Below, piece after piece: positions 12,849-61,872 of a DNA stretch of 64,000 bases. Below the pieces are notes generated by a model. It was given only the letters and a program-made list of their open reading frames with translations, had not been told where the DNA came from and did no database searches. The position numbers and the translations under genes were made by a program. The stretch's first letter is position 1. Every line of letters starts with the position of its first letter. Source of the stretch: Escherichia coli (lineage in GTDB: Bacteria > Pseudomonadota > Gammaproteobacteria > Enterobacterales > Enterobacteriaceae); assembly GCF_022846255.1 (NCBI RefSeq), contig NZ_AP025682.1; one strand, given 5' to 3'.

Positions 12849-14207
12849 ATGTTGAGTATTTTTAAACCAGCGCCACACAAAGCGCGCTTACCTGCCGCGG
12901 AGATCGATCCGACTTATCGTCGATTGCGCTGGCAAATTTTCCTGGGGATATTCTTTGGCTATGCTGCTTACTATTTGGTTCGTAAGAACTTTGCGCTTGC
13001 TATGCCTTACCTGGTCGAGCAGGGATTCTCACGCGGTGATTTAGGTTTCGCGCTTTCTGGGATCTCGATCGCTTATGGATTTTCGAAATTCATCATGGGC
13101 TCGGTGTCGGATCGCTCGAATCCGCGCGTTTTCCTGCCCGCAGGTTTGATTCTGGCGGCGGCAGTGATGTTGTTTATGGGCTTTGTGCCGTGGGCGACGT
13201 CGAGCATTGCGGTGATGTTTGTACTGTTGTTCCTCTGCGGTTGGTTCCAGGGGATGGGGTGGCCGCCGTGTGGTCGTACTATGGTGCACTGGTGGTCGCA
13301 GAAAGAACGTGGCGGCATTGTGTCAGTGTGGAACTGTGCGCACAACGTCGGTGGTGGTATTCCGCCGCTGCTGTTCCTGCTGGGGATGGCCTGGTTCAAT
13401 GACTGGCACGCGGCGCTCTATATGCCCGCTTTCTGCGCCATTCTGGTGGCACTGTTCGCCTTTGCGATGATGCGCGATACCCCGCAATCTTGTGGCCTGC
13501 CGCCGATCGAAGAGTACAAAAATGATTATCCGGACGACTATAACGAAAAAGCGGAACAGGAACTGACTGCGAAGCAAATCTTCATGCAGTACGTGCTGCC
13601 GAACAAATTGCTGTGGTACATCGCTATCGCCAACGTGTTCGTTTATCTGCTGCGTTACGGCATCCTCGACTGGTCACCGACTTATCTGAAAGAGGTGAAA
13701 CACTTCGCGCTGGATAAATCCTCCTGGGCCTACTTCTTCTATGAGTATGCGGGCATTCCGGGCACCCTGCTGTGCGGCTGGATGTCGGATAAAGTCTTCC
13801 GTGGCAACCGTGGGGCCACCGGCGTCTTCTTTATGACACTGGTGACCATCGCGACTATCGTTTACTGGATGAACCCGGCAGGTAACCCAACCGTAGATAT
13901 GATTTGTATGATTGTTATCGGCTTCCTGATCTACGGCCCTGTGATGCTGATCGGTCTGCATGCGCTGGAACTGGCACCGAAAAAAGCGGCAGGTACGGCA
14001 GCGGGCTTTACCGGGCTGTTTGGTTACCTCGGCGGTTCGGTGGCGGCGAGCGCGATTGTTGGCTACACCGTGGACTTCTTCGGCTGGGATGGCGGCTTTA
14101 TGGTAATGATTGGCGGCAGCATTCTCGCGGTTATCTTGTTGATTGTTGTGATGATTGGCGAAAAACGTCGCCATCAGGAATTACTGCAAAAACGCAACGG
14201 AGGCTAA
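12849..14207 (+). CDS. glpT: Glycerol-3-phosphate:phosphate antiporter (MFS), 452 aa
   Basis: Protein recognised; 452 aa. Confidence 0.9.
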
Positions 14208-17602: not shown

Positions 17603-17718
17603 ATGCCGGATAAGGCATTTTACGCCGCATCCTGTGCCTGATGCGACGCTGGCGCATCTTATCAGGCCTACAAAACCGAGCCGTAGGCCGGATAAGGCGT
17701 TCACGCCGCATCCTGCAT
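17603..17718. repeat. REP/BIME cluster in nrdA-nrdB intergenic region
   Basis: gccggataaggc...gccgcatc and gcctgatgcgacgc...cttatcaggcctac palindromic REP units. Confidence 0.8.
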
Positions 17719-17725
17719 CTCAATA

Positions 17726-20011
17726 TCAGATCTTACATGCGCCGCTTTCGCAGCCATCGTCCTGGATTGACGGCACCAGATCGTCTTGTGCGTCTTCAGC
17801 ACCGTCACGGGTGTTCTGATAATACAGCGTTTTGACCCCGAATTTGTAGGCGGTGAGCAGGTCTTTCAGCAGTTGCTGCATCGGCACTTTTCCTGACGGG
17901 AAGCGTGACGGATCGTAGTTGGTGTTAGCAGAGATCGACTGATCGATAAATTTCTGCATGATACCCACCAGTTGCAGGTAGCCATCGTTACCCGGCATTT
18001 CCCACAGCAGTTCATAGGCGTCGTGCAGATGCTCGTAGTCCGGCACCACCTGGCGCAGAATACCGTCTTTCGACGCTTTGATGCTGACGTAACCACGCGG
18101 CGGTTCAATACCGTTAGTGGCGTTAGAGATCTGCGAAGAGGTCTCGGACGGCATCAGGGCAGAAAGCGTGGAGTTACGCAGGCCGTGCGTTTTGATTGAC
18201 TCACGCAGTGCTTCCCAGTCGTAATGCAGCGGCTCATTAGCGATGGCATCCAGATCTTTCTTATAGGTATCGATCGGCAGGATCCCTTTCGCGTAAGTGG
18301 TTTCGTTAAACCACGGGCACGCCCCTTGCTCTTTCGCCAGCTCATTAGACGCTTTCAGCAGGTAATACTGAATGGCTTCGAAGGTTTTATGCGTCAGGTT
18401 GTTGGCGCTGCCGTCGGAGTAGCGTTTACCATGCTTCGCCAGGTAGTAAGCGAAGTTGATCACACCAATACCCAGCGTACGACGACCCATCGCTCCACGT
18501 TTGGCGGCCGGGATCGGGTAATCCTGATAATCCAGCAGCGCGTCGAGTGCGCGTACTGCCAGAATTGCCAGCTCTTCCAGTTCATCCAGGCTGTTAATTG
18601 CGCCCAGGTTGAAAGCAGACAGCGTACACAGCGCGATTTCACCGTTCTCGTCGTTGACGTCGTTCAGCGGTTTGGTCGGCAGGGCGATTTCCAGGCACAG
18701 GTTAGACTGGCGCACTGGCGCGATGGCCGGATCAAACGGGCTATGGGTATTGCAGTGGTCAACGTTCTGAATATAGATACGACCGGTAGATGCACGTTCC
18801 TGCATCATCAGCGAGAACAGCTCAACGGCTTTCACACGCTGCTTGCGGATGCTGTCGTCTTTCTCATATTTGGTGTACAGGCGTTCAAACTCTTCCTGAT
18901 CGGCGAAGAACGCGTCGTACAGCCCCGGTACGTCGGACGGGCTGAATAGGGTGATATCTTCACCTTTCAGCAGACGGGTATACATCAGTTTGTTGATTTG
19001 TACCCCGTAGTCCATATGACGCACGCGGTTGCCTTCCACCCCACGGTTGTTTTTCAACACCAGCAGGCTTTCCACTTCCAGATGCCACATCGGGTAGAAC
19101 AGTGTTGCCGCACCGCCACGCACACCGCCCTGAGAGCAGGATTTCACCGCTGTCTGGAAATGTTTGTAGAACGGAATACAACCGGTATGGAACGCTTCGC
19201 CACCGCGAATCGGGCTACCCAGCGCACGAATACGCCCGGCGTTGATGCCGATCCCGGCACGCTGGGAAACGTATTTAACAATCGCGCTGGAGGTGGCGTT
19301 AATGGAATCCAGGCTGTCGCCGCACTCGATCAGCACGCATGAGCTGAACTGACGAGTCGGGGTACGCACGCCGGACATGATTGGCGTCGGCAGCGAAATT
19401 TTAAATGTGGAAACCGCGTCGTAAAAACGCTTCACGTATTGCAGGCGCGTTTCACGCGGGTAGTTCGAGAACAGGCACGCGGCAACCAGAATATAAAGGA
19501 ACTGGGCGCTTTCGTAGATTTCGCCGGTCACGCGGTTCTGTACCAGATATTTGCCTTCCAGCTGCTTAACGGCAGCATAAGAGAAGGTCATATCACGGTC
19601 GTGATCGATAAACGTGTCCATCTGCTTGAACTCTTCTTCCGTGTAGTCTTCCAGCAGATGATTATCGTATTTGCCCATCTCGACCATTTTCACCACATGG
19701 TCGTACAGTGCAGGCGGCTCAAACTGACCGTAGGCTTTTTTACGCAGGTGGAAGATCGCCAGACGTGCGGCGAGATACTGATAATCCGGCGCATCACGGG
19801 AGATCAGGTCTGCGGCAGCCTTGATAATGGTTTCGTGGATGTCAGAGGTCTTGATACCGTCATAAAACTGAATGTGGGAGCGCAGCTCGACCTGGGAAAT
19901 CGAAACGTTATGCAGTCCTTCTGCCGCCCAATCCAGAACGCGATGGATTTTGTCGAGATTGATGCGCTCTGTGCTACCGTCGCGCTTTGTCACCAGCAGA
20001 TTCTGATTCAT
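17726..20011 (-). CDS. nrdA: Class Ia ribonucleotide reductase alpha subunit, 761 aa
   Basis: 761 aa; ATP-cone N-terminus; C-terminal Cys pair. Confidence 0.95.
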
Positions 20012-20075
20012 GTATGTCGTACCTGTTTTTCAATAGCTTCATGCAGACTACCTGTAGTGAGGGAAGCTGCTAAGA

Positions 20076-20121
20076 ACACTATATATAGGGGGTATGTTTG
20101 GGATTCACTGCAAGATAGTGT
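20076..20121 (-). promoter_or_regulatory. Two candidate NrdR boxes in nrdAB leader/promoter
   Basis: acactatatataggg (20076-20091) and cactgcaagatagtgt (20106-20121) resemble the NrdR palindrome acaCwAtATaTwGtgt; centres ~30 bp apart. Confidence 0.5.
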
Positions 20122-20151
20122 GAAACTGGCCCTCTTGCAAGTGCATAACTT

Positions 20152-20160
20152 TGTGGATAA
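20152..20160 (-). promoter_or_regulatory. DnaA box upstream of nrdA
   Basis: Minus strand reads TTATCCACA, a perfect DnaA box. Confidence 0.65.
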
Positions 20161-20692
20161 CTCAGGAAGGAAAAAGTGGCTTCCGCGCACCTTAGGTCAG
20201 ACAAGGTGTCCGGGAAAGTCAATGGGAAGAGAAAAATTTGTTAAAAATAACCGTTCGGTGAATTCTTGAACGGTAAAATAGGATAGGTAAATTGATATAG
20301 ATGGTTTATTAATCTTGTTGCTAATGATTGCCAAAATTGATCTAGGCACAAGTCGTCACATAATCTGATGTATCAGTTGTGGTCAATATATAAGCGAGTG
20401 TAAGCGATTGTTGAGTCGGAAATGGTTGTTTTATATTCGGTTATTGTTAAATACTAAGCCAATTTGTTACTTTTGTATTTATTATAAGAATATTATTTAT
20501 TGCTTTAATTCAGTTTAAATATAACCGATTTACCTTAAAGTTATTAATTTGAATTGTGATGCATCTAAATTAATTATCAGATAATAACAAAATAGTTATT
20601 ACATCAGGGGCAGAATTTACAAAAGAAAAATACCCTATATCGCATAATGCGATTAAATACGCCATCTTATAGAAAATGATGGTTAGATGAAT

Positions 20693-23600
20693 ATGCGGAT
20701 TATCTCTCTACGCAAGGAGTATTTATCTTTACTCCCGTCAATGATTGCATCTCTTTTCTCTGCTAACGGTGCCGCAGCGGTCATTGATTCATGCCAGGGA
20801 TATGATATCAAAGCGAGCTGTCAGGCCAGCAGGCAAAGCCTTTCGGGTAATATACAGGACTGGAGCATCGCGGATGGACAATGGTTGATTTTTTCGGGTA
20901 TGGTCAATAATACCAGCGGTGGCGCAGTATTTTTGCAGCACAGTGCTGAATTTACGATATCACCACAAAATGAAACAGGGATGACCCTGTTTGCTGATAA
21001 CTCGGTTAGTGGCGAATATAATAATGGTGGGGCTATCTTTGCTAAAGAAAACTCAACGATAAATCTTGCGAATGTTATTTTCGACAGTAATGTTGCAGGA
21101 GGCTATGGCGGAGCAATCTATTCTGCCGGTACCAATGATACCGGTGCCGCCGATTTACGTGTCACTAACGCCGTATTTCACAATAACATCGCTAATGACG
21201 GCAAAGGCGGTGCAATTTATACCATCAATAATGACGTCTATTTAAGTGATGATGCTTTTAATAATAATCAGGCATATACATCAACCAGCTATAGTGATGG
21301 GGACGGCGGTGCCATTGATGTTACGGATAATAGTACGGATAACACACATCTTTCAGGAAAAACGATAATTAATAATACCTCCTTTACCAATAACTATGCA
21401 GAAGGTTATGGCGGAGCAATTTATACCAGCAGCACCACATCCCCGTATCTTATTGATATTTCTGTTGATGATAATTATGACCAAAACAATGGTGTGATGA
21501 TTGATGAAAATAACAGCGCCTCGGGATATGACCATTCGGCGACGGCAGCGGCGGGGGGCTTTATGTATATCGGTCATAGTGTGGCTGAATTTAACATTGC
21601 CGCCGATAAAACGCTGGTAATAGGCAACACCAGCAACGATGGTGCGATTGATTCTCTTGCCGGAACGGGAGTCATCGTGAAAGAGGGAGCGGGAGAGTTA
21701 GTCCTCAATGCCGACAATAATGCGTTTACCGGCGAGATGAGTATCCAGAATGGCGAGGTGACGCTGGGGCGCAGCGATGAGTTAATGAATGTCGGCGACA
21801 CGCACTGTCAGAGCGATCCGCAGGATTGCTTTGGTCTGATGGTCGGCAGCACTGTTCATTCTGAGTATCAGGCAGAACTGAATGTTGGCAATACACAACA
21901 AACGTTTGTGCACTCATTAACCGGTTTTGCTAATGGCATTTTGAATATCGACGCAGGCGGCAATGTTACCGTAAACCAGGGCGGTTTTTCCGGCTCGATT
22001 CAGGGTGAAGGACAGTTGACGGTAGCGCAAGATGGCAGCTATCTCCTGACAGGGGCGCAGTCGATGGCATTAACCGGCGATATTGTGGTGGAAGATAACG
22101 CCGTATTGTCGCTAGCGGGGAATCAGGCCGATTTACGGGCAATGCAGAGCGATCCGCAATCGATCGTGCTAAATGGCGGAGTATTGGATCTCTCTGATTT
22201 CACCACCTGGGATGGCGATAGCTCATACAATGACGGTCTGCAAATCAGCGGCAGCGGGGGGACAGTGATTGGCAGTAATGATGTCGTTGATATCAGCAGT
22301 GGCGATGATTTACATATTGGCGGCAGTGATGCCAGCCAGAATGGCGTTTATGTCGTCATTAATGCGGGGGATCAGCGCGTAACGCTGGCGAATAACAACG
22401 GTTATCTCGGTAATACGCAAATCGCCTCCGGTACGCTTGAAGTCAGCGATAATTCGCAATTGGGGGACACAAGTTACAACCGTTCAGTGATCTTCACAGA
22501 TCCCCAACAACACAGTGAAATGGATGTGACGACTGATGTTGACACTCGCTCGGCTACAACAGGTCAGGGCAGGAATATTGAAATGCGCGCTGATGGCGAA
22601 ATACACGTTGAGGATGGCGTAGATACGCAATGGGGCGGATTGATGGCGGATAGTACCGGGCAACAACTGGATAGCGTAAGCACGTTGACTAAAAGTGGCG
22701 GCGGTACGCTGGAGTTGACCGCCAGCGGCACTGCGACGTCTGCGGTACGTGTGGAGGACGGAACGCTAAAAGGTGAAGCGGAGAATATTATTCCTTATGT
22801 TTCTTCACTGTGGGTGGGGGAAGACGGTGTTTTTGAAACCGGGCAAAATCAGGATATTCGCTCAATCGATGCCACCTCTGGCGGCGATATCGACATAACC
22901 GATGGTACTGTGTTGCGATTGACGCAGCAGGATACGAACCAGGTGCTGGATGCCTCGCTGTTTAGCGGCGACGGTACGCTGGTGAATGCCACCGATGGCG
23001 TGACGCTGGCAGGTGAGCTTAATACCAACCTTGAAACTGACAGCCTGACTTATCTTTCCGACGTGACGGTCAATGGTGATCTAACTAATACTTCCGGTGC
23101 TGTCAGTCTGCAAAATGGCGTCGCTGGCGACACGCTCACGGTAAACGGTGATTACATCGGTGGCGGTACGTTGTTTCTCGACAGCGAATTAAACGGCGAT
23201 GACTCGGCAAGCGACCAACTGGTGTTGAACGGCAATACCTCGGGTAACACGACCGTGGTGGTTAACCCCATTACTGGCATTGGTGAACCGACATCTACAG
23301 GTATTAAAGTGGTTGATTTCGCAGCTGATCCCGCGCAGTTTCAAAACAATGCGCAGTTCAGTCTGGCAGGAAGCGGCTACGTCAATATGGGGGCGTATGA
23401 CTACACGCTGGTGGAAGATAACAACGACTGGTATCTGCGATCACAAGAAGTCAATCCGACGCCGCCGCCCGATCCAGACCCGACTCCAGATCCTGATCCC
23501 ACGCCGGATCCCGACCCAACCCCCGACCCAACCCCCGACCCGGAACCTACGCCTGCCTACCAGCCGGTGTTGAATGCCAAAGTTGGTGGATATTTTAATA

Positions 23601-24463
23601 ACCTGCGGGCGGCAAATCAGGCATTTGTGATGGAGCGACGCGATCACGCTGGTGGCGATGGTCAGACGCTGAATTTACGCGTTATCGGCGGGCGTTATCA
23701 TTACACGGCGGTAGGGCAGTTGGCTCAGCATGAAGACACTTCTACGGTGCAGCTTAGCGGCAACCTGTTTAGCGGGCACTGGGGTGATGATGGCGAGTGG
23801 ATGCTTGGGATTGTTGGTGGCTACAGCGATAACCAGGGCGACAGCCGCTCGAATATGACCGGAACTCGCGCCGATAACCAGAACCACGGTTATGCCGTTG
23901 GGCTGACCTCAAGCTGGTATCAGCACGGTAATCAGAAGCAGGGGGCCTGGTTGGATAGCTGGCTGCAATATGTGTGGTTTAACAATGATGTTTCCGAACA
24001 AGACGATGGCGTGGATCATTACCACTCGTCGGGGATTATCGCCTCGCTGGAAGCCGGTTATCAGTGGTTACCGGGGCATGGTGTGGTGATTGAACCGCAG
24101 ACGCAGGTGATTTATCAGGGCGTGCAGCAGGATGATTTTACCACCGCTAACCATGCGCGCGTGTCACAATCGCAGGGTGATGATATTCAGACGCGGCTGG
24201 GTTTACACAGCGAATGGCGTACTGCTGTTGGTGTCACGCCAACGTTAGATCTGAATTATTATCACGATCCCCATTCGACGGGAATTGAAGAAGATGGCAG
24301 CACTATCAGTGACGATGCGGCGAAGCAACGGGGTGAAATAAAAGTGGGAATAACGGGCAATATCAGTCAGCGAGTTTCGCTGCGTGGTAGCGTGGCGTGG
24401 CAGAAAGGGAGTGATGATTTTGCCCAGACGGCAGGGTTTTTGTCGATGACAGTGAAATGGTAA
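20693..24463 (+). CDS. yfaL: AIDA-I-type autotransporter adhesin YfaL, ~1256 aa
   Basis: Signal peptide, Asn/Gly-rich beta-helix passenger, Pro-rich linker and C-terminal beta-barrel ending in W; alternative ATG at 20687. Confidence 0.85.
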   Translation: MRIISLRKEYLSLLPSMIASLFSANGAAAVIDSCQGYDIKASCQASRQSLSGNIQDWSIADGQWLIFSGMVNNTSGGAVFLQHSAEFTISPQNETGMTLFADNSVSGEYNNGGAIFAKENSTINLANVIFDSNVAGGYGGAIYSAGTNDTGAADLRVTNAVFHNNIANDGKGGAIYTINNDVYLSDDAFNNNQAYTSTSYSDGDGGAIDVTDNSTDNTHLSGKTIINNTSFTNNYAEGYGGAIYTSSTTSPYLIDISVDDNYDQNNGVMIDENNSASGYDHSATAAAGGFMYIGHSVAEFNIAADKTLVIGNTSNDGAIDSLAGTGVIVKEGAGELVLNADNNAFTGEMSIQNGEVTLGRSDELMNVGDTHCQSDPQDCFGLMVGSTVHSEYQAELNVGNTQQTFVHSLTGFANGILNIDAGGNVTVNQGGFSGSIQGEGQLTVAQDGSYLLTGAQSMALTGDIVVEDNAVLSLAGNQADLRAMQSDPQSIVLNGGVLDLSDFTTWDGDSSYNDGLQISGSGGTVIGSNDVVDISSGDDLHIGGSDASQNGVYVVINAGDQRVTLANNNGYLGNTQIASGTLEVSDNSQLGDTSYNRSVIFTDPQQHSEMDVTTDVDTRSATTGQGRNIEMRADGEIHVEDGVDTQWGGLMADSTGQQLDSVSTLTKSGGGTLELTASGTATSAVRVEDGTLKGEAENIIPYVSSLWVGEDGVFETGQNQDIRSIDATSGGDIDITDGTVLRLTQQDTNQVLDASLFSGDGTLVNATDGVTLAGELNTNLETDSLTYLSDVTVNGDLTNTSGAVSLQNGVAGDTLTVNGDYIGGGTLFLDSELNGDDSASDQLVLNGNTSGNTTVVVNPITGIGEPTSTGIKVVDFAADPAQFQNNAQFSLAGSGYVNMGAYDYTLVEDNNDWYLRSQEVNPTPPPDPDPTPDPDPTPDPDPTPDPTPDPEPTPAYQPVLNAKVGGYFNNLRAANQAFVMERRDHAGGDGQTLNLRVIGGRYHYTAVGQLAQHEDTSTVQLSGNLFSGHWGDDGEWMLGIVGGYSDNQGDSRSNMTGTRADNQNHGYAVGLTSSWYQHGNQKQGAWLDSWLQYVWFNNDVSEQDDGVDHYHSSGIIASLEAGYQWLPGHGVVIEPQTQVIYQGVQQDDFTTANHARVSQSQGDDIQTRLGLHSEWRTAVGVTPTLDLNYYHDPHSTGIEEDGSTISDDAAKQRGEIKVGITGNISQRVSLRGSVAWQKGSDDFAQTAGFLSMTVKW
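23456..23553 (+). repeat. Short tandem repeats encoding Pro-Thr/Asp linker (PTPPPDPDPTPDPDPTPDPDPTPDPTPDPEPTP) in yfaL
   Basis: Visible 6-18-bp periodicity (ccggatcccgaccc / cccgaccc). Confidence 0.7.
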
Positions 24464-24485
24464 TCGCTGTCTGACCGGCACTGTT

Positions 24486-24567
24486 GCCGGATGCGGCGTA
24501 AACGCCTTATCTGGCCTACGGGGAGCATTTGTAGGTCTGATAAGACGCGGCAAGCGCCGCATCAGGC
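24486..24567. repeat. REP/BIME element between yfaL and ubiG
   Basis: gccggatgcggcgtaaacgccttatctggcctac ... gtaggtctgataagacgcggcaagcgccgcatcaggc. Confidence 0.8.
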
Positions 24568-25325: not shown

Positions 25326-25418
25326 TGGCACTTCTACTCCGTAATTGGCAAGACAAACGAGTATATCAGGCATTGGATGTGAATAAAGCGTATAGGTTTA
25401 CCTCAAACTGCGCGGCTG

Positions 25419-25427
25419 TGTTATAAT
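25419..25427 (+). promoter_or_regulatory. gyrA promoter extended -10 (TGnTATAAT)
   Basis: tgttataat lies 45 bp upstream of the gyrA ATG. Confidence 0.5.
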
Positions 25428-25471
25428 TTGCGACCTTTGAATCCGGGATACAGTAGAGGGATAGCGGTTAG

Positions 25472-28099
25472 ATGAGCGACCTTGCGAGAGAAATTACACC
25501 GGTCAACATTGAGGAAGAGCTGAAGAGCTCCTATCTGGATTATGCGATGTCGGTCATTGTTGGCCGTGCGCTGCCAGATGTCCGAGATGGCCTGAAGCCG
25601 GTACACCGTCGCGTACTTTACGCCATGAACGTACTAGGCAATGACTGGAACAAAGCCTATAAAAAATCTGCCCGTGTCGTTGGTGACGTAATCGGTAAAT
25701 ACCATCCCCATGGTGACTCGGCGGTTTATGACACGATCGTCCGTATGGCGCAGCCATTCTCGCTGCGTTACATGCTGGTAGACGGTCAGGGTAACTTCGG
25801 TTCCATCGACGGCGACTCTGCGGCGGCAATGCGTTATACGGAAATCCGTCTGGCGAAAATTGCCCATGAACTGATGGCTGATCTCGAAAAAGAGACGGTC
25901 GATTTCGTTGATAACTATGACGGCACGGAAAAAATTCCGGACGTCATGCCAACCAAAATTCCTAACCTGCTGGTGAACGGTTCTTCCGGTATCGCCGTAG
26001 GTATGGCAACCAACATCCCGCCGCACAACCTGACGGAAGTCATCAACGGTTGTCTGGCGTATATCGATGATGAAGACATCAGCATTGAAGGGCTGATGGA
26101 ACACATCCCGGGGCCGGACTTCCCGACGGCGGCAATCATTAACGGTCGTCGCGGTATTGAAGAAGCTTACCGTACCGGTCGCGGCAAGGTATATATCCGC
26201 GCCCGTGCTGAAGTGGAAGTTGACGCCAAAACCGGACGTGAAACCATTATCGTCCACGAAATTCCTTATCAGGTGAACAAAGCGCGCCTGATCGAGAAGA
26301 TTGCGGAACTGGTAAAAGAAAAACGCGTGGAAGGCATCAGCGCGCTGCGTGACGAGTCTGACAAAGACGGTATGCGCATCGTGATTGAAGTGAAACGCGA
26401 TGCGGTCGGTGAAGTTGTGCTCAACAACCTCTACTCCCAGACCCAGTTGCAGGTTTCTTTCGGTATCAACATGGTGGCATTGCACCATGGTCAGCCGAAG
26501 ATCATGAACCTGAAAGACATCATCGCGGCGTTTGTTCGTCACCGCCGCGAAGTGGTGACTCGTCGTACTATTTTCGAACTGCGTAAAGCTCGCGATCGTG
26601 CTCATATCCTTGAAGCATTAGCCGTGGCACTGGCGAACATCGACCCGATCATCGAACTGATCCGTCATGCGCCGACGCCTGCAGAAGCGAAAACCGCGCT
26701 GGTTGCTAATCCGTGGCAGCTGGGCAACGTTGCCGCGATGCTGGAACGTGCGGGCGACGATGCTGCGCGTCCGGAATGGCTGGAGCCAGAGTTCGGCGTG
26801 CGTGATGGTCTGTACTACCTGACCGAACAGCAAGCTCAGGCGATTCTGGATCTGCGTTTGCAGAAACTGACCGGCCTTGAGCACGAAAAACTGCTCGACG
26901 AATACAAAGAGCTGCTGGATCAGATCGCGGAACTGTTGCGTATTCTTGGTAGCGCCGATCGTCTGATGGAAGTGATCCGCGAAGAGCTGGAGCTGGTTCG
27001 TGAACAGTTCGGTGACAAACGTCGTACTGAAATCACCGCCAACAGCGCAGACATCAACCTGGAAGATCTGATCACCCAGGAAGATGTGGTCGTGACGCTC
27101 TCTCACCAGGGCTACGTGAAGTATCAGCCGCTTTCTGAATACGAAGCGCAGCGTCGTGGCGGGAAAGGTAAATCTGCCGCACGTATTAAAGAAGAAGACT
27201 TTATCGACCGACTGCTGGTGGCGAATACCCACGACCATATTCTGTGCTTCTCCAGCCGTGGTCGCGTCTATTCGATGAAGGTCTACCAGTTGCCAGAAGC
27301 TACTCGTGGCGCGCGTGGTCGTCCGATCGTCAACCTGCTGCCGCTGGAACAGGACGAACGTATCACCGCGATCCTGCCGGTGACCGAGTTTGAAGAAGGC
27401 GTGAAAGTCTTCATGGCGACCGCTAACGGTACGGTGAAGAAAACCGTCCTCACCGAGTTCAACCGTCTGCGTACCGCCGGTAAAGTGGCGATCAAACTGG
27501 TTGAAGGCGATGAGCTGATCGGCGTTGACCTGACCAGCGGCGAAGACGAAGTAATGCTGTTCTCCGCTGAAGGTAAAGTGGTGCGCTTTAAAGAGTCTTC
27601 TGTCCGTGCGATGGGCTGCAACACCACCGGTGTTCGTGGTATTCGTTTAGGCGAAGGCGATAAAGTCGTCTCTCTGATCGTGCCTCGTGGCGATGGCGCA
27701 ATCCTCACCGCAACGCAGAACGGTTATGGTAAACGTACCGCAGTGGCGGAATACCCAACCAAGTCGCGTGCGACGAAAGGGGTTATCTCCATCAAGGTTA
27801 CCGAACGTAACGGTTTAGTGGTTGGCGCGGTGCAGGTAGATGACTGCGACCAGATCATGATGATCACCGATGCCGGTACGCTGGTACGTACTCGCGTTTC
27901 GGAAATCAGCATCGTAGGCCGTAACACCCAGGGCGTAATCCTTATCCGTACTTCGGAAGATGAAAACGTGGTGGGTCTGCAACGTGTTGCTGAACCGGTT
28001 GACGAGGAAGATCTGGATACCATCGACGGCAGTGCCGCGGAAGGGGACGATGAAATCGCTCCGGAAGTGGACGTTGACGACGAGCCAGAAGAAGAATAA
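25472..28099 (+). CDS. gyrA: DNA gyrase subunit A, 875 aa
   Basis: Unmistakable GyrA sequence; QRDR wild-type (Ser83 TCG at 25718-25720, Asp87 GAC at 25730-25732). Confidence 0.97.
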
Positions 28100-28120
28100 T
28101 TTCATCGCTTCATGCCAAAA

Positions 28121-28140
28121 GGGAGCCATCTCCCTTTTTT
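28121..28140 (+). terminator. Rho-independent terminator after gyrA
   Basis: gggag-ccat-ctccc hairpin followed by tttttt. Confidence 0.7.
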
Positions 28141-28247
28141 GAATTGAAAAGTCCAGGCTGTAAAGTCTGGGCTTTTGTCGTATTAGGGCGCGGTAAAGTT
28201 TGGCTGTGCCCGTAAAAAATGGCTGGCTATACACAAGGAATGTGGCA

Positions 28248-35094
<6,847 letters not shown>

Positions 35095-41640: not shown

Positions 41641-41819
41641 TTATACATCCGCCGGATCGATACCGTATTCCTGGAGTTTATACATCAATGCACGGCGACT
41701 GATGCCCAGCATTAATGCAGTGCGGGTTCGGTTTCCTTCTTGTTGTTCCAGCACTTCCATAATGATGCGTTTTTCGACGCGTTTAATTTCCTCTTTTAAA
41801 TTACGCTCACCGACAGGGG
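41641..41819 (-). pseudogene. atoC: atoC 3' fragment (C-terminal HTH domain) separated from the rest of the gene by IS4
   Basis: Hand-translated in frame with the 5' part across the TSD: ...PVGERNLKEEIKRVEKRIIMEVLEQQEGNRTRTALMLGISRRALMYKLQEYGIDPADV*. Confidence 0.85.
41808..41819. repeat. IS4 target-site duplication, left copy (CACCGACAGGGG)
   Basis: Identical 12-mer directly flanks the other IS4 end at 43246-43257. Confidence 0.9.
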
Positions 41820-43245
41820 TAATGCCAGTCAGTTAAGCAACTGACTGGCTCTTTTTCGGGGCTGTGGGGTATTTCCAGGGCCTCTCCTTTACCACTCTCG
41901 GGAAGGCCCTTTCCCTTCTTGTCGGTAATTTCACAAGTTGTCCCATACTTGCAAGATCGCGCATCAGCTCCGGTATACGTCCCGGTGAAGCGCCCTGCAA
42001 TGTCATCAGCATTCTCATCACCATTCCACATGATTCTGAGAAACTCAGTTGATTCGGCCAGTAACCTTTCAGATGTTCCGCCATTTTAATCATCTGATAT
42101 CTCACCAGATTATAAGCCAGTAAGACACCCCACAGCTCTTGCTCCACAAGCTCCGGTTTTTTACTTCTCAGCGTCAGCCTGCTCAGTTGCATCGTCTGTT
42201 TTATCTCCCTGTATCCCAGTTCGATTTCCCAGCGATGACTGTACAGATCCGCCATTTCTCCTCCGGGGAAGCGCATGGCGTCCGTCATCGACGTCAGCAG
42301 ATGGCAGACTTTTCCTTTGCGCGTCACGGTCAGCAGGCGGGCTGTCACTTCATTTCCCAGTCCCGGCCACTTTTTTCGTGCCTGCGGGCTGGTTTTCAGC
42401 TTCACCAGATGATCGCCTTTACCCAGTTTTCTGATCTCTTCATATTGCGCTCCCTTTCTGAGAGGTATCATCCAGTGGCGGTGTTCTCCCGCCAGGCTCC
42501 AGGCATTTAACAGTCCCAGTGAGTAATAACCTTTATCCATTAACGTCAGAGTGTTATCGCCGGTTTGTTCTATAAGTTGCTCAGCAAGCTCATTTTCGCT
42601 GTTCTTCATCGTGCCGAAGGCTGCAGCCGTCAGCAGATGGCTGGTCAGTTCCATCTGGCAGACCATTTTGACCTGCGGGTAGAGCGCCGGGTTCCCGGCA
42701 TGTGTCTGGCGGGGGAAGGCTGCATCGTTCTCTGGTGTATCCGGTGTGCGCCAGAACACACCATCGATGGCCAGCAGGGTCAGGCCGCACCAGTGCGGAT
42801 GCGGCGTGGCGTTATGCCAGAGCTGCGCTGTTTTCGTGAACACGCGGCGGACAGCCTCACTTCCCAGGCGCTGGCGGGCCTGAATAACGGCACTGGGGGC
42901 AACGAAGGGGCGATTGCCCGGCAGCATGATGTCCAGGCGATTCACAATCTGGTGAAGAGGTTCTTTACGCTCAAGCGCCATGCCAACAATACACCAGACC
43001 ATCATTTCGAGGGGAAGACGGCGCTTGCGTAGCGTTACAGTACCTGATTCGGCAAGGCAACGAGAGATGAGTTCGGGGTCGAGGTAATCCCCCAGAGAAG
43101 TCAGTGGGTTACGCAGAGAATCGTAACGGGATACCAGATCAAGAGCCTGTCCAATGTGCATAAAAAAATCCGGAAACAAGTGAGCGTTTCCGGATTCTTA
43201 CACAGCCACTGGATCGGTCAACTGATCCTTAACTGATCGGCATTA
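41820..43245 (-). mobile_element. IS4 insertion sequence, complete (1426 bp)
   Basis: Terminal inverted repeats TAATGCCAGTCAGTTAAG / TAATGCCGATCAGTTAAG (16/18 match); 1426 bp between them; single 442-aa IS4-family transposase; flanked by 12-bp direct repeat. Confidence 0.9.
41833..43161 (-). CDS. insG: IS4 transposase InsG, 442 aa
   Basis: Starts [16 protein letters not shown]; the ORF-track 448-aa version begins 6 codons upstream. Confidence 0.9.
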
Positions 43246-44464
43246 CACCGACAGGGGCTGTTTTTGCCTCACCAGCATTACAGACTGGCTGACGAATCTG
43301 CGGCGGAAGATCCTCAGAGAAAATGATCGGGCCTGAGTTCATCACGACGGCGCGTTCAATGACGTTGGAAAGCTCTCGAATATTACCCGGCCATGACCAG
43401 GCGGTAAGCAGCGACATTGCCATCGGATCGATGTCGATAATATCGCGCTGATTCTCACTACTGAATTTTTGCAAAAAGTGATTAGCTAACAGGGAAATAT
43501 CTTCCCGGCGATCGCGCAGAGGCGGCAGTATTAAATGAATAACGTTAAGGCGATAAAAGAGATCTTCACGGAAGGTGCCTTCTTTCACCATTGCCTGCAA
43601 GTCGCGGTTGGTGGCAGCAATGATGCGGATATCAACTTTTATGGTCTGATGACCGCCAATCCGTTCAAATTCCCGTTCCTGCAGAATGCGTAGTAATTTG
43701 GCTTGCAGTACCAGCGGCATTTCGCCAATTTCGTCGAGGAGCAGAGTACCTTCGTTGGCACGTTCAAATAATCCCTGACGTAAGGTTTGTGCACCAGTAA
43801 ATGCGCCTTTTTCATGACCAAACAGTTCACTTTCGAGCAACGATTCCGGCAGCGCCGCGCAGTTGACTTTAATGAACGGCCCCTTTGCCCTCCGCGAATT
43901 GTAGTGAATCGCTCTGGCAATCAACTCTTTCCCGGTGCCGCTTTCACCGCTAATCAAGACGCTGGCCTGAGAAAGGGCAATTTTGGCGGTGTCTTTGCAG
44001 ATGTCCATCATCGCCGGGCTGTTGGTGAGAATGTGCCCCCATTGCCAGCTGGTGCTCAGTGCCTGGTGCAGATGACGGATCTCTTTTTTCATTGACTGGA
44101 GTTGTAAAGCGCGCTGAACGATTAAATTCAACTCATCGAGATCAAACGGTTTGATAACATAGTCGAAGGCTCCGCAGCGTAGTGCTTCGACGGCGGTTTC
44201 CACTTCAGCATAGGCCGTCATCAGAATAACGGGTGTCCGGGTCTCATGGCTGCGCATCTCCTTGAGTGCCTTGATGCCGTCCATCTCTGGCATGCGGATA
44301 TCCATCAACACCACGTCAGGGTGAATATCGGCAAACAGGTGTAATGCTGTGCGCCCGTTGTTCGCACAATGTGTTTCGAATCCTTGTAGTGCAAAAGCGG
44401 TGCTCAGCATACGGCGAACATTATCTTCATCATCCACAATAAGGATGCGATTAATAGCAGTCAT
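43229..44464 (-). pseudogene. atoC: atoC 5' part: receiver plus sigma-54 AAA+ domains, truncated by IS4 (406 native codons + VMPIS from the IS end)
   Basis: ORF of 411 aa ends 17 nt inside the IS4 terminal repeat; GESGTGKE Walker A and GAFTGA motif present; HTH absent. Confidence 0.85.
43246..43257. repeat. IS4 target-site duplication, right copy (CACCGACAGGGG)
   Basis: Identical to 41808-41819. Confidence 0.9.
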
Positions 44465-46453: not shown

Positions 46454-49303
46454 TTGAAATACCTTGCTTCTTTTCGTACAACCCTGAAAGCCTCGCGCTA
46501 CATGTTCAGAGCATTGGCGTTAGTGCTCTGGCTGTTGATTGCTTTTTCATCCGTTTTTTACATCGTTAATGCGTTACATCAGCGAGAATCGGAAATTCGT
46601 CAGGAATTTAATCTGAGTTCCGATCAGGCTCAGCGCTTTATTCAACGCACCTCTGATGTGATGAAAGAGCTGAAGTACATAGCTGAAAATCGCTTATCGG
46701 CAGAAAACGGTGTGCTTTCCCCGCGTGGACGAGAAACGCAGACGGATGTGCCTGCGTTTGAACCGCTGTTTGCTGACTCTGATTGTTCCGCAATGAGTAA
46801 CACCTGGCGAGGTTCTCTGGAGTCATTGGCGTGGTTTATGCGCTACTGGCGCGATAATTTTTCTGCGGCTTACGATCTAAACCGGGTATTTTTAATCGGC
46901 AGCGATAACCTCTGCATGGCTAATTTCGGTCTGCGTGATATGCCAGTGGAACGCGATACCGCGTTAAAAGCTTTGCATGAACGCATTAATAAATATCGAA
47001 ATGCACCACAAGATGATAGTGGCAGTAACCTCTACTGGATCAGCGAAGGTCCGCGCCCTGGCGTCGGGTATTTTTACGCCTTGACGCCAGTTTATCTGGC
47101 GAACCGGTTGCAGGCGCTTTTGGGTGTCGAGCAAACCATCCGGATGGAGAACTTTTTCTTACCTGGTACGTTGCCGATGGGGGTTACCATTCTTGATGAA
47201 AATGGTCATACCCTGATTTCGCTTACCGGACCAGAAAGCAAAATTAAGGGCGATCCTCGCTGGATGCAGGAACGCTCCTGGTTTGGCTATACGGAAGGGT
47301 TCCGGGAGCTGGTGCTGAAGAAAAATCTGCCACCCTCATCGCTAAGCATCGTGTATTCGGTGCCGGTTGATAAGGTGCTGGAACGCATTCGCATGTTGAT
47401 CCTTAACGCAATTTTGCTGAATGTGCTTGCCGGAGCTGCATTGTTTACTCTCGCGCGGATGTACGAGCGGCGTATTTTCATTCCGGCGGAAAGCGACGCC
47501 TTGCGACTGGAAGAACATGAGCAGTTTAATCGCAAGATTGTCGCCTCCGCGCCAGTGGGTATCTGCATTTTGCGTACCGCTGATGGCGTCAATATTTTAA
47601 GTAACGAACTGGCGCATACCTATCTCAATATGCTTACGCATGAGGATCGCCAACGGCTGACACAAATTATCTGTGGGCAGCAGGTCAATTTTGTTGATGT
47701 CCTGACCAGCAACAATACCAATCTGCAAATCAGCTTCGTCCATTCGCGCTATCGTAATGAAAACGTGGCCATTTGTGTGCTTGTGGATGTTTCTTCGCGC
47801 GTGAAGATGGAAGAGTCGTTGCAGGAGATGGCACAAGCAGCGGAACAGGCGAGTCAGTCAAAATCGATGTTCCTTGCCACCGTCAGTCATGAGCTGCGAA
47901 CGCCGCTGTATGGCATTATCGGTAACCTGGATCTGTTGCAAACCAAAGAGTTACCGAAAGGCGTCGATCGTCTGGTGACGGCAATGAACAACTCTTCCAG
48001 CCTGTTGTTGAAAATTATCAGCGATATTCTCGATTTCTCGAAGATTGAATCGGAACAGTTGAAGATCGAACCGCGTGAGTTTTCACCGCGTGAAGTGATG
48101 AACCACATCACCGCCAACTATTTACCGCTGGTGGTACGCAAGCAGTTAGGCTTGTACTGCTTTATTGAACCGGATGTGCCAGTGGCCTTAAATGGCGACC
48201 CGATGCGTTTACAGCAGGTCATCTCCAACCTGTTGAGTAACGCCATAAAATTCACCGATACCGGCTGTATAGTTTTGCATGTTCGCGCTGATGGCGATTA
48301 TCTCTCTATCCGTGTTCGCGATACCGGCGTGGGGATTCCGGCGAAAGAAGTCGTGCGCTTGTTTGATCCCTTCTTCCAGGTCGGAACGGGCGTACAGCGA
48401 AACTTCCAGGGGACCGGTCTGGGTCTGGCGATTTGTGAAAAACTGATCAGCATGATGGACGGCGATATCTCGGTAGATTCAGAACCGGGAATGGGCAGCC
48501 AGTTTACCGTGCGTATTCCGTTGTACGGCGCTCAGTACCCGCAGAAAAAAGGCGTGGAAGGGTTGAGTGGTAAACGCTGCTGGCTGGCGGTCCGCAATGC
48601 GTCGCTCTGTCAGTTCCTGGAAACCAGTTTGCAGCGCAGCGGCATCGTCGTTACAACATACGAAGGGCAGGAACCGACTCCCGAAGATGTGTTAATCACT
48701 GACGAGGTAGTGAGCAAAAAATGGCAGGGTAGAGCGGTAGTGACCTTCTGTCGTCGCCATATTGGTATTCCGCTGGAGAAAGCGCCAGGGGAGTGGGTAC
48801 ACAGTGTGGCTGCCCCGCATGAGCTACCGGCATTGTTGGCGCGTATTTATTTGATCGAGATGGAGAGCGATGATCCTGCTAACGCTCTGCCGTCGACGGA
48901 CAAAGCGGTCAGCGATAACGACGATATGATGATTCTGGTCGTGGATGATCATCCGATTAACCGGCGTCTTCTGGCAGATCAGTTGGGATCGTTGGGCTAT
49001 CAATGTAAAACCGCGAATGATGGCGTCGATGCGCTTAATGTACTTAGCAAGAATCATATTGATATCGTGCTTAGCGACGTCAACATGCCAAATATGGATG
49101 GTTACCGCTTGACGCAACGCATTCGTCAGTTGGGACTGACGTTGCCGGTTATCGGAGTAACTGCTAATGCGTTGGCTGAAGAGAAGCAGCGGTGTCTGGA
49201 GTCCGGTATGGACAGCTGCCTGTCGAAGCCGGTAACGCTGGATGTGATAAAACAGACGCTAACGGTATATGCCGAGAGGGTCAGGAAATCGCGGGATTCG
49301 TAG
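46454..49303 (+). CDS. rcsC: Hybrid sensor kinase RcsC, 949 aa (TTG start) or 933 aa from ATG 46502
   Basis: HisKA/HATPase plus C-terminal receiver; the ORF-track start is TTG. Confidence 0.9.
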   Translation: MKYLASFRTTLKASRYMFRALALVLWLLIAFSSVFYIVNALHQRESEIRQEFNLSSDQAQRFIQRTSDVMKELKYIAENRLSAENGVLSPRGRETQTDVPAFEPLFADSDCSAMSNTWRGSLESLAWFMRYWRDNFSAAYDLNRVFLIGSDNLCMANFGLRDMPVERDTALKALHERINKYRNAPQDDSGSNLYWISEGPRPGVGYFYALTPVYLANRLQALLGVEQTIRMENFFLPGTLPMGVTILDENGHTLISLTGPESKIKGDPRWMQERSWFGYTEGFRELVLKKNLPPSSLSIVYSVPVDKVLERIRMLILNAILLNVLAGAALFTLARMYERRIFIPAESDALRLEEHEQFNRKIVASAPVGICILRTADGVNILSNELAHTYLNMLTHEDRQRLTQIICGQQVNFVDVLTSNNTNLQISFVHSRYRNENVAICVLVDVSSRVKMEESLQEMAQAAEQASQSKSMFLATVSHELRTPLYGIIGNLDLLQTKELPKGVDRLVTAMNNSSSLLLKIISDILDFSKIESEQLKIEPREFSPREVMNHITANYLPLVVRKQLGLYCFIEPDVPVALNGDPMRLQQVISNLLSNAIKFTDTGCIVLHVRADGDYLSIRVRDTGVGIPAKEVVRLFDPFFQVGTGVQRNFQGTGLGLAICEKLISMMDGDISVDSEPGMGSQFTVRIPLYGAQYPQKKGVEGLSGKRCWLAVRNASLCQFLETSLQRSGIVVTTYEGQEPTPEDVLITDEVVSKKWQGRAVVTFCRRHIGIPLEKAPGEWVHSVAAPHELPALLARIYLIEMESDDPANALPSTDKAVSDNDDMMILVVDDHPINRRLLADQLGSLGYQCKTANDGVDALNVLSKNHIDIVLSDVNMPNMDGYRLTQRIRQLGLTLPVIGVTANALAEEKQRCLESGMDSCLSKPVTLDVIKQTLTVYAERVRKSRDS

Positions 49304-49497
49304 GACGGATAAGGCGTTTACGCCGCATCTGGCATTCAGTGCAAATGCCAGATGCGACGCTGACGTGTCTTATCTGGCCTACTTTAATGTAATCTGTTGA
49401 AATAATGGGAATCGTAGGACGGATAAGGCGTTTACGCCGCATCCGGCAATCGGTGCAAATGCCAGATAAGACACTAACGCGTCTTATCTGGCCTACA
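49304..49497. repeat. REP/BIME cluster between convergent rcsC and rcsB
   Basis: Two copies of cgtaggacggataaggcgtttacgccgcatc (about 49297 and 49412) plus inverted partners ending cttatctggcctac. Confidence 0.8.
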
Positions 49498-53153: not shown

Positions 53154-53246
53154 AAAAAAAACCGGATGCGAGGCATCCGGTTGAAATAGGGGTAAACAGA
53201 CATTCAGAAATGAATGACGGTAATAAATAAAGTTAATGATGATAGC
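53154..53246 (-). ncRNA. micF: MicF antisense sRNA (93 nt), repressor of ompF translation
   Basis: Minus strand reads GCTATCATCATTAACTTTATTTATTACCGTCATTCATTTCTGAATGTCTGTTTACCCCTATTTCAACCGGATGCCTCGCATCCGGTTTTTTTT, ending in a hairpin plus U8 terminator; divergent from ompC. Confidence 0.9.
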
Positions 53247-53401
53247 GGGAGATATTCTAGTTGCGAGTGAAGGTTTTGTTTTGACATTCAGTGCTGTCAA
53301 ATACTTAAGAATAAGTTATTGATTTTAACCTTGAATTATTATTGCTTGATGTTAGGTGCTTATTTCGCCATTCCGCAATAATCTTAAAAAGTTCCCTTAT
53401 A

Positions 53402-53580: not shown

Positions 53581-54696
53581 ATGAAAGTTAAAGTACTGTC
53601 CCTCCTGGTCCCAGCTCTGCTGGTAGCAGGCGCAGCAAACGCTGCTGAAATTTACAACAAAGACGGCAACAAATTAGATCTGTACGGTAAAGTTGACGGC
53701 CTGCACTATTTCTCCGATAACGACTCTAAAGATGGCGACAAGACCTACATGCGTCTTGGCTTCAAAGGTGAAACTCAGGTTACTGATCAACTGACCGGTT
53801 ATGGTCAGTGGGAATATCAGATTCAAGGTAACGAACCTGAAAGTGACAATAGTTCCTGGACCCGTGTGGCATTCGCTGGTCTGAAATTCCAGGACGTTGG
53901 TTCTTTTGACTATGGTCGTAACTACGGCGTTGTTTATGACGTAACATCCTGGACCGACGTGCTGCCAGAATTCGGTGGTGACACCTACAGCTCTGACAAC
54001 TTCATGCAGCAGCGTGGTAACGGCTTCGCGACCTACCGTAACACCGACTTCTTCGGTCTGGTTGATGGCCTGAACTTTGCTGTTCAGTACCAGGGTAAAA
54101 ACGGTAGCCCGTCTGGCGAAGGTATGACTGGTGTGACCAACAATGGTCGTGATGTTCTGGAACAGAACGGTGACGGCGTTGGTGGTTCTATCACTTATGA
54201 CATCGGTGAAGGCTTCAGCTTCGGTGGTGCAATCTCCAGCTCCAAACGTACCGCAGAGCAGAACAATTATGGCATCGGTAACGGCGATCGTGCAGAAACC
54301 TACACTGGTGGTCTGAAATACGACGCTAACAATGTATACCTGGCTGCTCAGTACACCCAGACTTACAACGCAACTCTGGCTGGTGATTTAGGTTGGGCGA
54401 ACAAAGCTCAGAACTTTGAAGTGGTTGCACAGTACCAGTTCGACTTCGGTCTGCGTCCTTCTGTAGCTTACCTGCAGTCCAAAGGTAAAAACCTGAATGC
54501 CAACATCGCTGGTCGTACTTACGACGACGAAGATCTGCTGAAATATGTTGATGTTGGTGCGACCTACTACTTCAACAAAAACATGTCCACCTACGTTGAC
54601 TACAAAATCAACCTGCTGGACGACAACCAGTTCACCCGCGCTGCTGGCATCAACACTGATAACATCGTAGCTCTGGGTCTGGTTTACCAGTTCTAA
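53581..54696 (+). CDS. ompC: Outer membrane porin OmpC, 371 aa (non-K-12 allele)
   Basis: Signal peptide [21 protein letters not shown]; ends LVYQF; differs from my recollection of K-12 OmpC (367 aa) in loop segments. Confidence 0.9.
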
Positions 54697-61236: not shown

Positions 61237-61365
61237 ATGTGCCACATCCGGCATGGTATGCCGGATGTGGCGTATGCAGATAAGACGCGTCAGCGTCGCA
61301 TCAGGCAACCGGCTCGGGCGTTAGATGTCGGATGCGGCGTAACCGCCTTATCCGACCTGGCGGTT
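61237..61365. repeat. REP/BIME cluster between mqo and eco
   Basis: gatgtgccacatccggcatggtatgccggatgtggcg ... gatgtcggatgcggcgtaaccgccttatccgacctggcgg. Confidence 0.8.
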
Positions 61366-61383
61366 GCAGCACTTCACAGCAGT

Positions 61384-61872
61384 TTAGCGAACTACCGCGT
61401 TGTCAATTTTCTCTTCCGCCTTCCAGACGCGGTACTTCACATCTACATTGTCTGGCGTATACACCACGATCGGCAGCTTGCTGTTATAACGCAGCATTCC
61501 GGCATCGCCCAGATACGCGGTGACAAATTTCTTCTCTTTCTTGCCATCCGGGCAGGCCATCATCGTCGAAACCGGGGAACTGACTTTATCAAAGACATAA
61601 TAATCATAGCCCCAGCCTTCCAGCGTTTTGCTTTCCAGCTTCCCGCCGAGACGATGCAAATTGCAATCGACTTCCAGCGTCTGGCCGATTAACAGTTCTA
61701 CTTTCAGGGTAGATTCATCTTCTTGCGGGGTTAACTGAATCACCTGGCGCTTCATGCCTTTTTCAGCTTGTGGATAAGGTGCGATTTTTTCCAGTGGCTG
61801 GACGCTTTCTGCCGCCCAGGCGGAAGTGGTGGCGAAAGCGGCAAACAATACTGCAGGTAGAATGGTCTTCAT
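61384..61872 (-). CDS. eco: Ecotin, periplasmic serine protease inhibitor, 162 aa
   Basis: Starts [20 protein letters not shown]; ORF-track start 61893 is an extension. Confidence 0.9.

Follow-up and report, generated by a model that had tools for sequence, protein, structure and literature searches.

A full-length Escherichia coli gyrA with wild-type quinolone anchor residues and no predicted contribution to resistance

The window, a 64-kb stretch of Escherichia coli DNA, almost certainly carries a full-length and intact gene for DNA gyrase subunit A with a wild-type quinolone-binding surface (Table 1). The initial annotation had read serine at codon 83 and aspartate at codon 87 and had reported that the common resistance substitutions (S83L and D87N/G/Y) were absent. 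Both statements held when the gene was compared with reference sequences. In fact, residues 1 to 677 were identical throughout to those of K-12 and of E. coli GyrA in PDB entry 6RKS, a span that takes in the region determining quinolone resistance (QRDR), Ala51, Ala119, Ala196, and the Arg121/Tyr122 pair. This comparison supports a broader claim for gyrA than the one made at the outset, namely, one that covers all residues from 1 to 677 and not just codons 83 and 87. The gene, the water-metal ion bridge involving Ser83 and Asp87, and the exact protein allele have all been documented before, and the allele is a textbook wild type.

Table 1. Positions of gyrA features and of other elements in the 64-kb window
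Feature	Position	Strand	Remarks
ubiG-gyrA intergenic region	25326..25471	+	Contains promoter (extended -10) and ribosome-binding site; 146 of 146 bases as in K-12
gyrA coding sequence	25472..28099	+	875 codons plus stop; from ORF list and translation
QRDR, codons 67-106	25670..25789	+	Protein identical to K-12
Codons 81-88 (GDSAVYDT)	25712..25735	+	GGT GAC TCG GCG GTT TAT GAC ACG, read in frame from the ATG at 25472
Codon 83	25718..25720	+	TCG, Ser, wild type; residue role in PMC9917921 and PMC7730664
Codon 87	25730..25732	+	Wild-type Asp (GAC); second of the two bridge anchors (PMC9917921)
Codon 122	25835..25837	+	TAT, Tyr122, after Arg121; winged-helix domain
GyrA box, residues 560-566	27149..27169	+	QRRGGKG; C-terminal DNA-wrapping (beta-pinwheel) domain
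Codon 678	27503..27505	+	GAA, Glu (K-12 GAC, Asp); D678E
Codon 828	27953..27955	+	TCG, Ser (K-12 GCG, Ala); A828S
IS4 element	41820-43245		1,426 bp, within atoC
IS4-family transposase	41833-43179	-	
Target duplication	41808-41819 and 43246-43257		12 bp, CACCGACAGGGG
glpT	12849-14207	+	Fosfomycin uptake route
yfaL	20687-24463		
yfaS	30475-35094	+	Alpha-2-macroglobulin family protein
naRNA4 (REP-type) elements	49303-49379 and 49417-49493	+	Between rcsC and rcsB; Rfam
MicF sRNA	53154-53247	-	Upstream of ompC; Rfam, 116.8 bits
ompC	53581-54696		
Unit of about 110 bp	61279-61387		Between eco and mqo

Several lines of evidence establish which gene this is and in which register it is read. Using phmmer, we aligned the predicted protein with E. 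coli GyrA (PDB 6RKS and its relatives); residues 1 to 875 mapped onto residues 1 to 875 with no gap, and 873 of the 875 positions were identical. The DNA is exactly as long as K-12 gyrA (2,628 nt each, with no indels) and 98.17% identical to it at the nucleotide level. The 48 differences comprise 46 synonymous and 2 nonsynonymous changes. That 46 of 48 are silent indicates strong purifying selection on gyrA, and a pattern of mostly silent change is the expectation for an essential gene. Given its near-complete identity to the characterized E. coli enzyme (873 of 875 residues), the protein would be expected to carry out negative supercoiling together with GyrB. The winged-helix domain retains Tyr122, the catalytic tyrosine of type IIA topoisomerases, preceded by Arg121.

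If the reading register were shifted, or if the gene were the paralog parC, then Ser83 and Asp87 would not correspond to the resistance sites of GyrA. ParC has the fold in common with GyrA, resembles it in the helix-4 motif, and was among the weaker matches in both the PDB and NCBIfam. However, a gapless alignment over the whole of GyrA with 873 identical residues speaks against both possibilities, and the register used by the initial annotation, checked in this way and by the match in DNA length, contained no miscount. Against TIGR01063, the NCBIfam equivalog for gyrA, the protein scored 1309.5 bits, above the curated cutoff of 877, whereas its score against parC_Gneg was 581.3, under the cutoff of 628.9. 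The protein also has a GyrA box, which marks gyrase as opposed to topoisomerase IV. The gene order ubiG-gyrA-yfaA is that of K-12 and of strain MS20657, and this synteny, like the GyrA box, argues against parC. The alignment, the comparison with K-12 DNA, and the family scores rule out a shifted register and a parC identity, to which we assign a negligible probability. Four open reading frames of 139 to 323 codons on the opposite strand within gyrA (25634-26605, 26618-27238, 27283-27708, and 27815-28234) were also listed; we treat them as mechanical artifacts of listing open reading frames rather than as genes.

Having identified the gene as gyrA, we considered its upstream region. The spacer contains TGTGTTATAAT, an extended -10 element that corresponds to the K-12 gyrA promoter. 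Because gyrA is intact and the 146-bp spacer matches K-12 at every base, the gene should be expressed normally. A generic consensus scan for promoters and terminators around gyrA called neither the known promoter nor the hairpin that follows the stop codon.

The QRDR has been defined as GyrA residues 67 to 106 (PMC7730664). Relative to K-12 and 6RKS, we found no substitution within this region or at A51, A119, or A196. The K-12 state was present at A51, A67, G81, D82, S83, A84, D87, Q106, A119, A196, and R462. Within the QRDR, the DNA differed from K-12 at three silent sites: V85 (GTC to GTT), R91 (CGC to CGT), and Y100 (TAT to TAC).

These residues matter for how the drugs act. Quinolones trap the gyrase-DNA cleavage complex, in which the C3/C4 keto-acid of the drug is held or positioned by a water-Mg2+ bridge whose anchors are a conserved serine and an acidic residue in helix 4 (PMC9917921; PMC7730664). 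In the gyrase of E. coli, Ser83 and Asp87 alike anchor this bridge (PMC9917921). Within the winged-helix domain, the two residues belong to helix alpha-4 and adjoin the catalytic Tyr122. In ParC, Ser80 and Glu84 form the equivalent helix-4 pair of a serine and an acidic residue that anchors the water-metal ion bridge, according to one published account (PMC3632122). With Ser83 and Asp87 both kept, fluoroquinolones would be expected to trap the gyrase encoded in the window as efficiently as they trap the K-12 enzyme, and the wild-type anchors would make the contribution of gyrA to resistance zero. Drug sensitivity like that of K-12 is expected because both anchors are present beside Tyr122.

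The only protein differences from K-12, D678E and A828S, both fall in the C-terminal domain. It is conceivable that this gyrA still lowers quinolone susceptibility through sites beyond 83 and 87, whether by A51V, by changes at G81, D82, A84, Q106, or A196, or by D678E and A828S themselves. Mutations elsewhere than at the classic hot spots can confer resistance, an example being A51V, which lies outside the QRDR (PMC7730664), and the window gyrA does have two nonsynonymous differences from K-12. Nevertheless, the identity of residues 1 to 677 with K-12 argues against substitutions of this kind at positions other than 83 and 87, and D678E and A828S are situated in the DNA-wrapping C-terminal domain, distant from the drug pocket. 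In clinical surveys, it depends on the sequence type whether S83L/D87N accompany these two changes (PMC10638923; PMC6848087), so that they occur in susceptible and resistant backgrounds alike. Furthermore, in a pan-genome study of genotype and phenotype (Hyun et al. 2020; PMC7067475), 637 isolates with the allele that differs from MG1655 by just D678E and A828S ("gyrA-0") were fluoroquinolone susceptible and 3 were resistant. We therefore regard a contribution from other sites in this gyrA as extremely unlikely.

D678E and A828S are common polymorphisms that track sequence type rather than phenotype, as judged from associations in the literature. Their presumed neutrality is a population association. 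The exact 875-residue protein occurs on at least 1,000 contigs in public data, under the name E. coli DNA gyrase subunit A. The pair could subtly shift the wrapping of DNA or the set-point of supercoiling, and lineages with it could hence differ in fitness or in their route to later quinolone resistance; we consider such an effect very unlikely.

From the sequence, together with the published association for this exact allele, a wild-type ciprofloxacin MIC is predicted unless non-gyrA mechanisms act. The initial annotation had likewise predicted no target-based quinolone resistance from gyrA, a prediction that gains support from the identity of residues 1 to 677 with K-12 and from the split of 637 isolates versus 3 for the allele. 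Still, a wild-type gyrA does not guarantee a susceptible strain. Three of the 640 isolates with the D678E and A828S allele were resistant (PMC7067475), presumably through non-gyrA mechanisms. The strain could be resistant in the same way, by means of plasmid qnr, aac(6')-Ib-cr, qepA, or oqxAB, efflux mutations in marR, acrR, or soxR, or changes in gyrB, parC, or parE, and a reading of "susceptible" would then be misleading. A 64-kb window cannot speak for determinants located elsewhere in the genome. Our conclusion is limited to gyrA because the window does not include parC, parE, gyrB, plasmids, or the efflux regulators.

On the other hand, such determinants are absent from the window itself, in which collinearity with K-12 extends from ais/nudI to napA and an IS4 element is the sole insertion. 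In addition, the window has an intact OmpC as well as micF. Quinolones act primarily on gyrase in E. coli, and a gyrA mutation is normally the starting point of high-level resistance; in the absence of such a mutation, just low-level resistance is expected. Overall, we judge it unlikely that the strain is resistant through determinants of this kind. As gyrA indicates, the step with which fluoroquinolone resistance usually begins has not occurred in this strain. The value of this observation is practical only: where resistance is predicted from genotype, gyrA is correctly called negative here.

To place the allele among other E. coli, we counted exact 39-mers spanning codons 78 to 90 in 5,426 complete RefSeq genomes of the species. 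As lower bounds, with further synonymous variants uncounted, the wild-type 39-mer was found in 2,651 genomes (48.9%; 2,012 with codon 85 as GTT, like the window, and 639 with GTC, like K-12), the S83L plus D87N form in 1,702 (31.4%; 1,371 GTT and 331 GTC), and S83L alone in 484 (8.9%; 412 GTT and 72 GTC). The rest, about 11% of genomes, have other substitutions or other silent variants. No other single state is as common as the wild-type QRDR, even though the collection is biased toward clinical multidrug-resistant isolates. One complete RefSeq E. coli record labeled as a plasmid contains a gyrA match. One plasmid location matches the S83L plus D87N 39-mer exactly and could represent either a plasmid-borne or a misassigned copy of a resistant gyrA.

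The surrounding DNA closely follows K-12. The window is an ordinary chromosomal segment, collinear with K-12 positions 2,365,174 down to 2,301,777 at 94.6 to 98.4% identity, and the genes that K-12 has from nudI to napA are all full length except atoC. The lone insertion, the one IS element present, is the IS4 copy in atoC; apart from it, we found no acquired gene in the 64 kb, resistance genes included. Its terminal inverted repeats read TAATGCC(A/G)(G/A)TCAGTTAAG, and a target duplication flanks it on both sides. The insertion cuts AtoC after approximately residue 406 of 461. Because the C-terminal part of the protein is lost, the short-chain fatty-acid operon atoDAEB can probably no longer be activated.

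We also recorded several other features of the region. GlpT is intact and 99.1% identical to its K-12 counterpart, and fosfomycin resistance by loss of glpT is not predicted from the window. The yfaS gene, a pseudogene in the K-12 annotation, is an uninterrupted open reading frame of 1,539 codons here; its product had no family match in NCBIfam. Divergence from K-12 is greatest, by a wide margin, in the surface proteins YfaL (81.6% identity) and OmpC (89.3%, with indels); nearly all other proteins in the window are 97 to 100% identical. The exact OmpC protein is common to several other NCBI assemblies, whose DNA differs from the window by 41 to 276 mismatches over 7.1 kb. The MicF small RNA and two naRNA4 elements were identified with Rfam. 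Finally, a single copy of a unit of approximately 110 bp lies between eco and mqo; it matches five tandem copies in K-12 (2304503-2304950).

The lineage to which the window belongs is sparsely sampled in public data. Among the 5,426 complete RefSeq E. coli genomes, the nearest gyrA was 99.2% identical at the DNA level, and the best match to a 25-kb segment was 98.1%. Shigella, which the IS4 insertion and the best identity of roughly 98% brought into consideration, is unlikely, since the 64 kb contain a single IS element and all genes other than atoC are intact. A strain-specific 40-mer from yfaL was absent from GTDB species-representative genomes. One 6.8-kb Logan contig (DRR322657_220, from run DRR322657) was identical to window positions 17684 to 24510 over 6,827 bp. 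The nucleotide allele of gyrA is uncommon, differing by at least 0.8% from every gyrA in the complete RefSeq E. coli genomes. Sparse sampling leaves the gyrA finding unaffected because the protein allele is common.

Comparison with named relatives places the window gyrA among well-characterized forms of the gene. ParC has a paralogous fold, but the window protein has the GyrA box and falls under the parC_Gneg cutoff. The S83L and S83L plus D87N alleles share the gene and the codon context of the window and occur on both the GTT and the GTC background at codon 85. They differ in having TTG at codon 83 and, where D87N is present, AAC at codon 87, in place of the TCG and GAC of the window. GyrA of K-12 MG1655 (b2231, NP_416734.1; structures 6RKS, 6RKU, 6RKV, and 6RKW) has in common with the window its length of 875 amino acids, residues 1 to 677, the GyrA box, the 146 bp upstream, and the neighbors ubiG and yfaA; the window differs by D678E, A828S, and 46 synonymous changes. 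Like the window, the gyrA-0 allele of Hyun et al. 2020 (PMC7067475) combines D678E and A828S relative to MG1655 with an unchanged QRDR.
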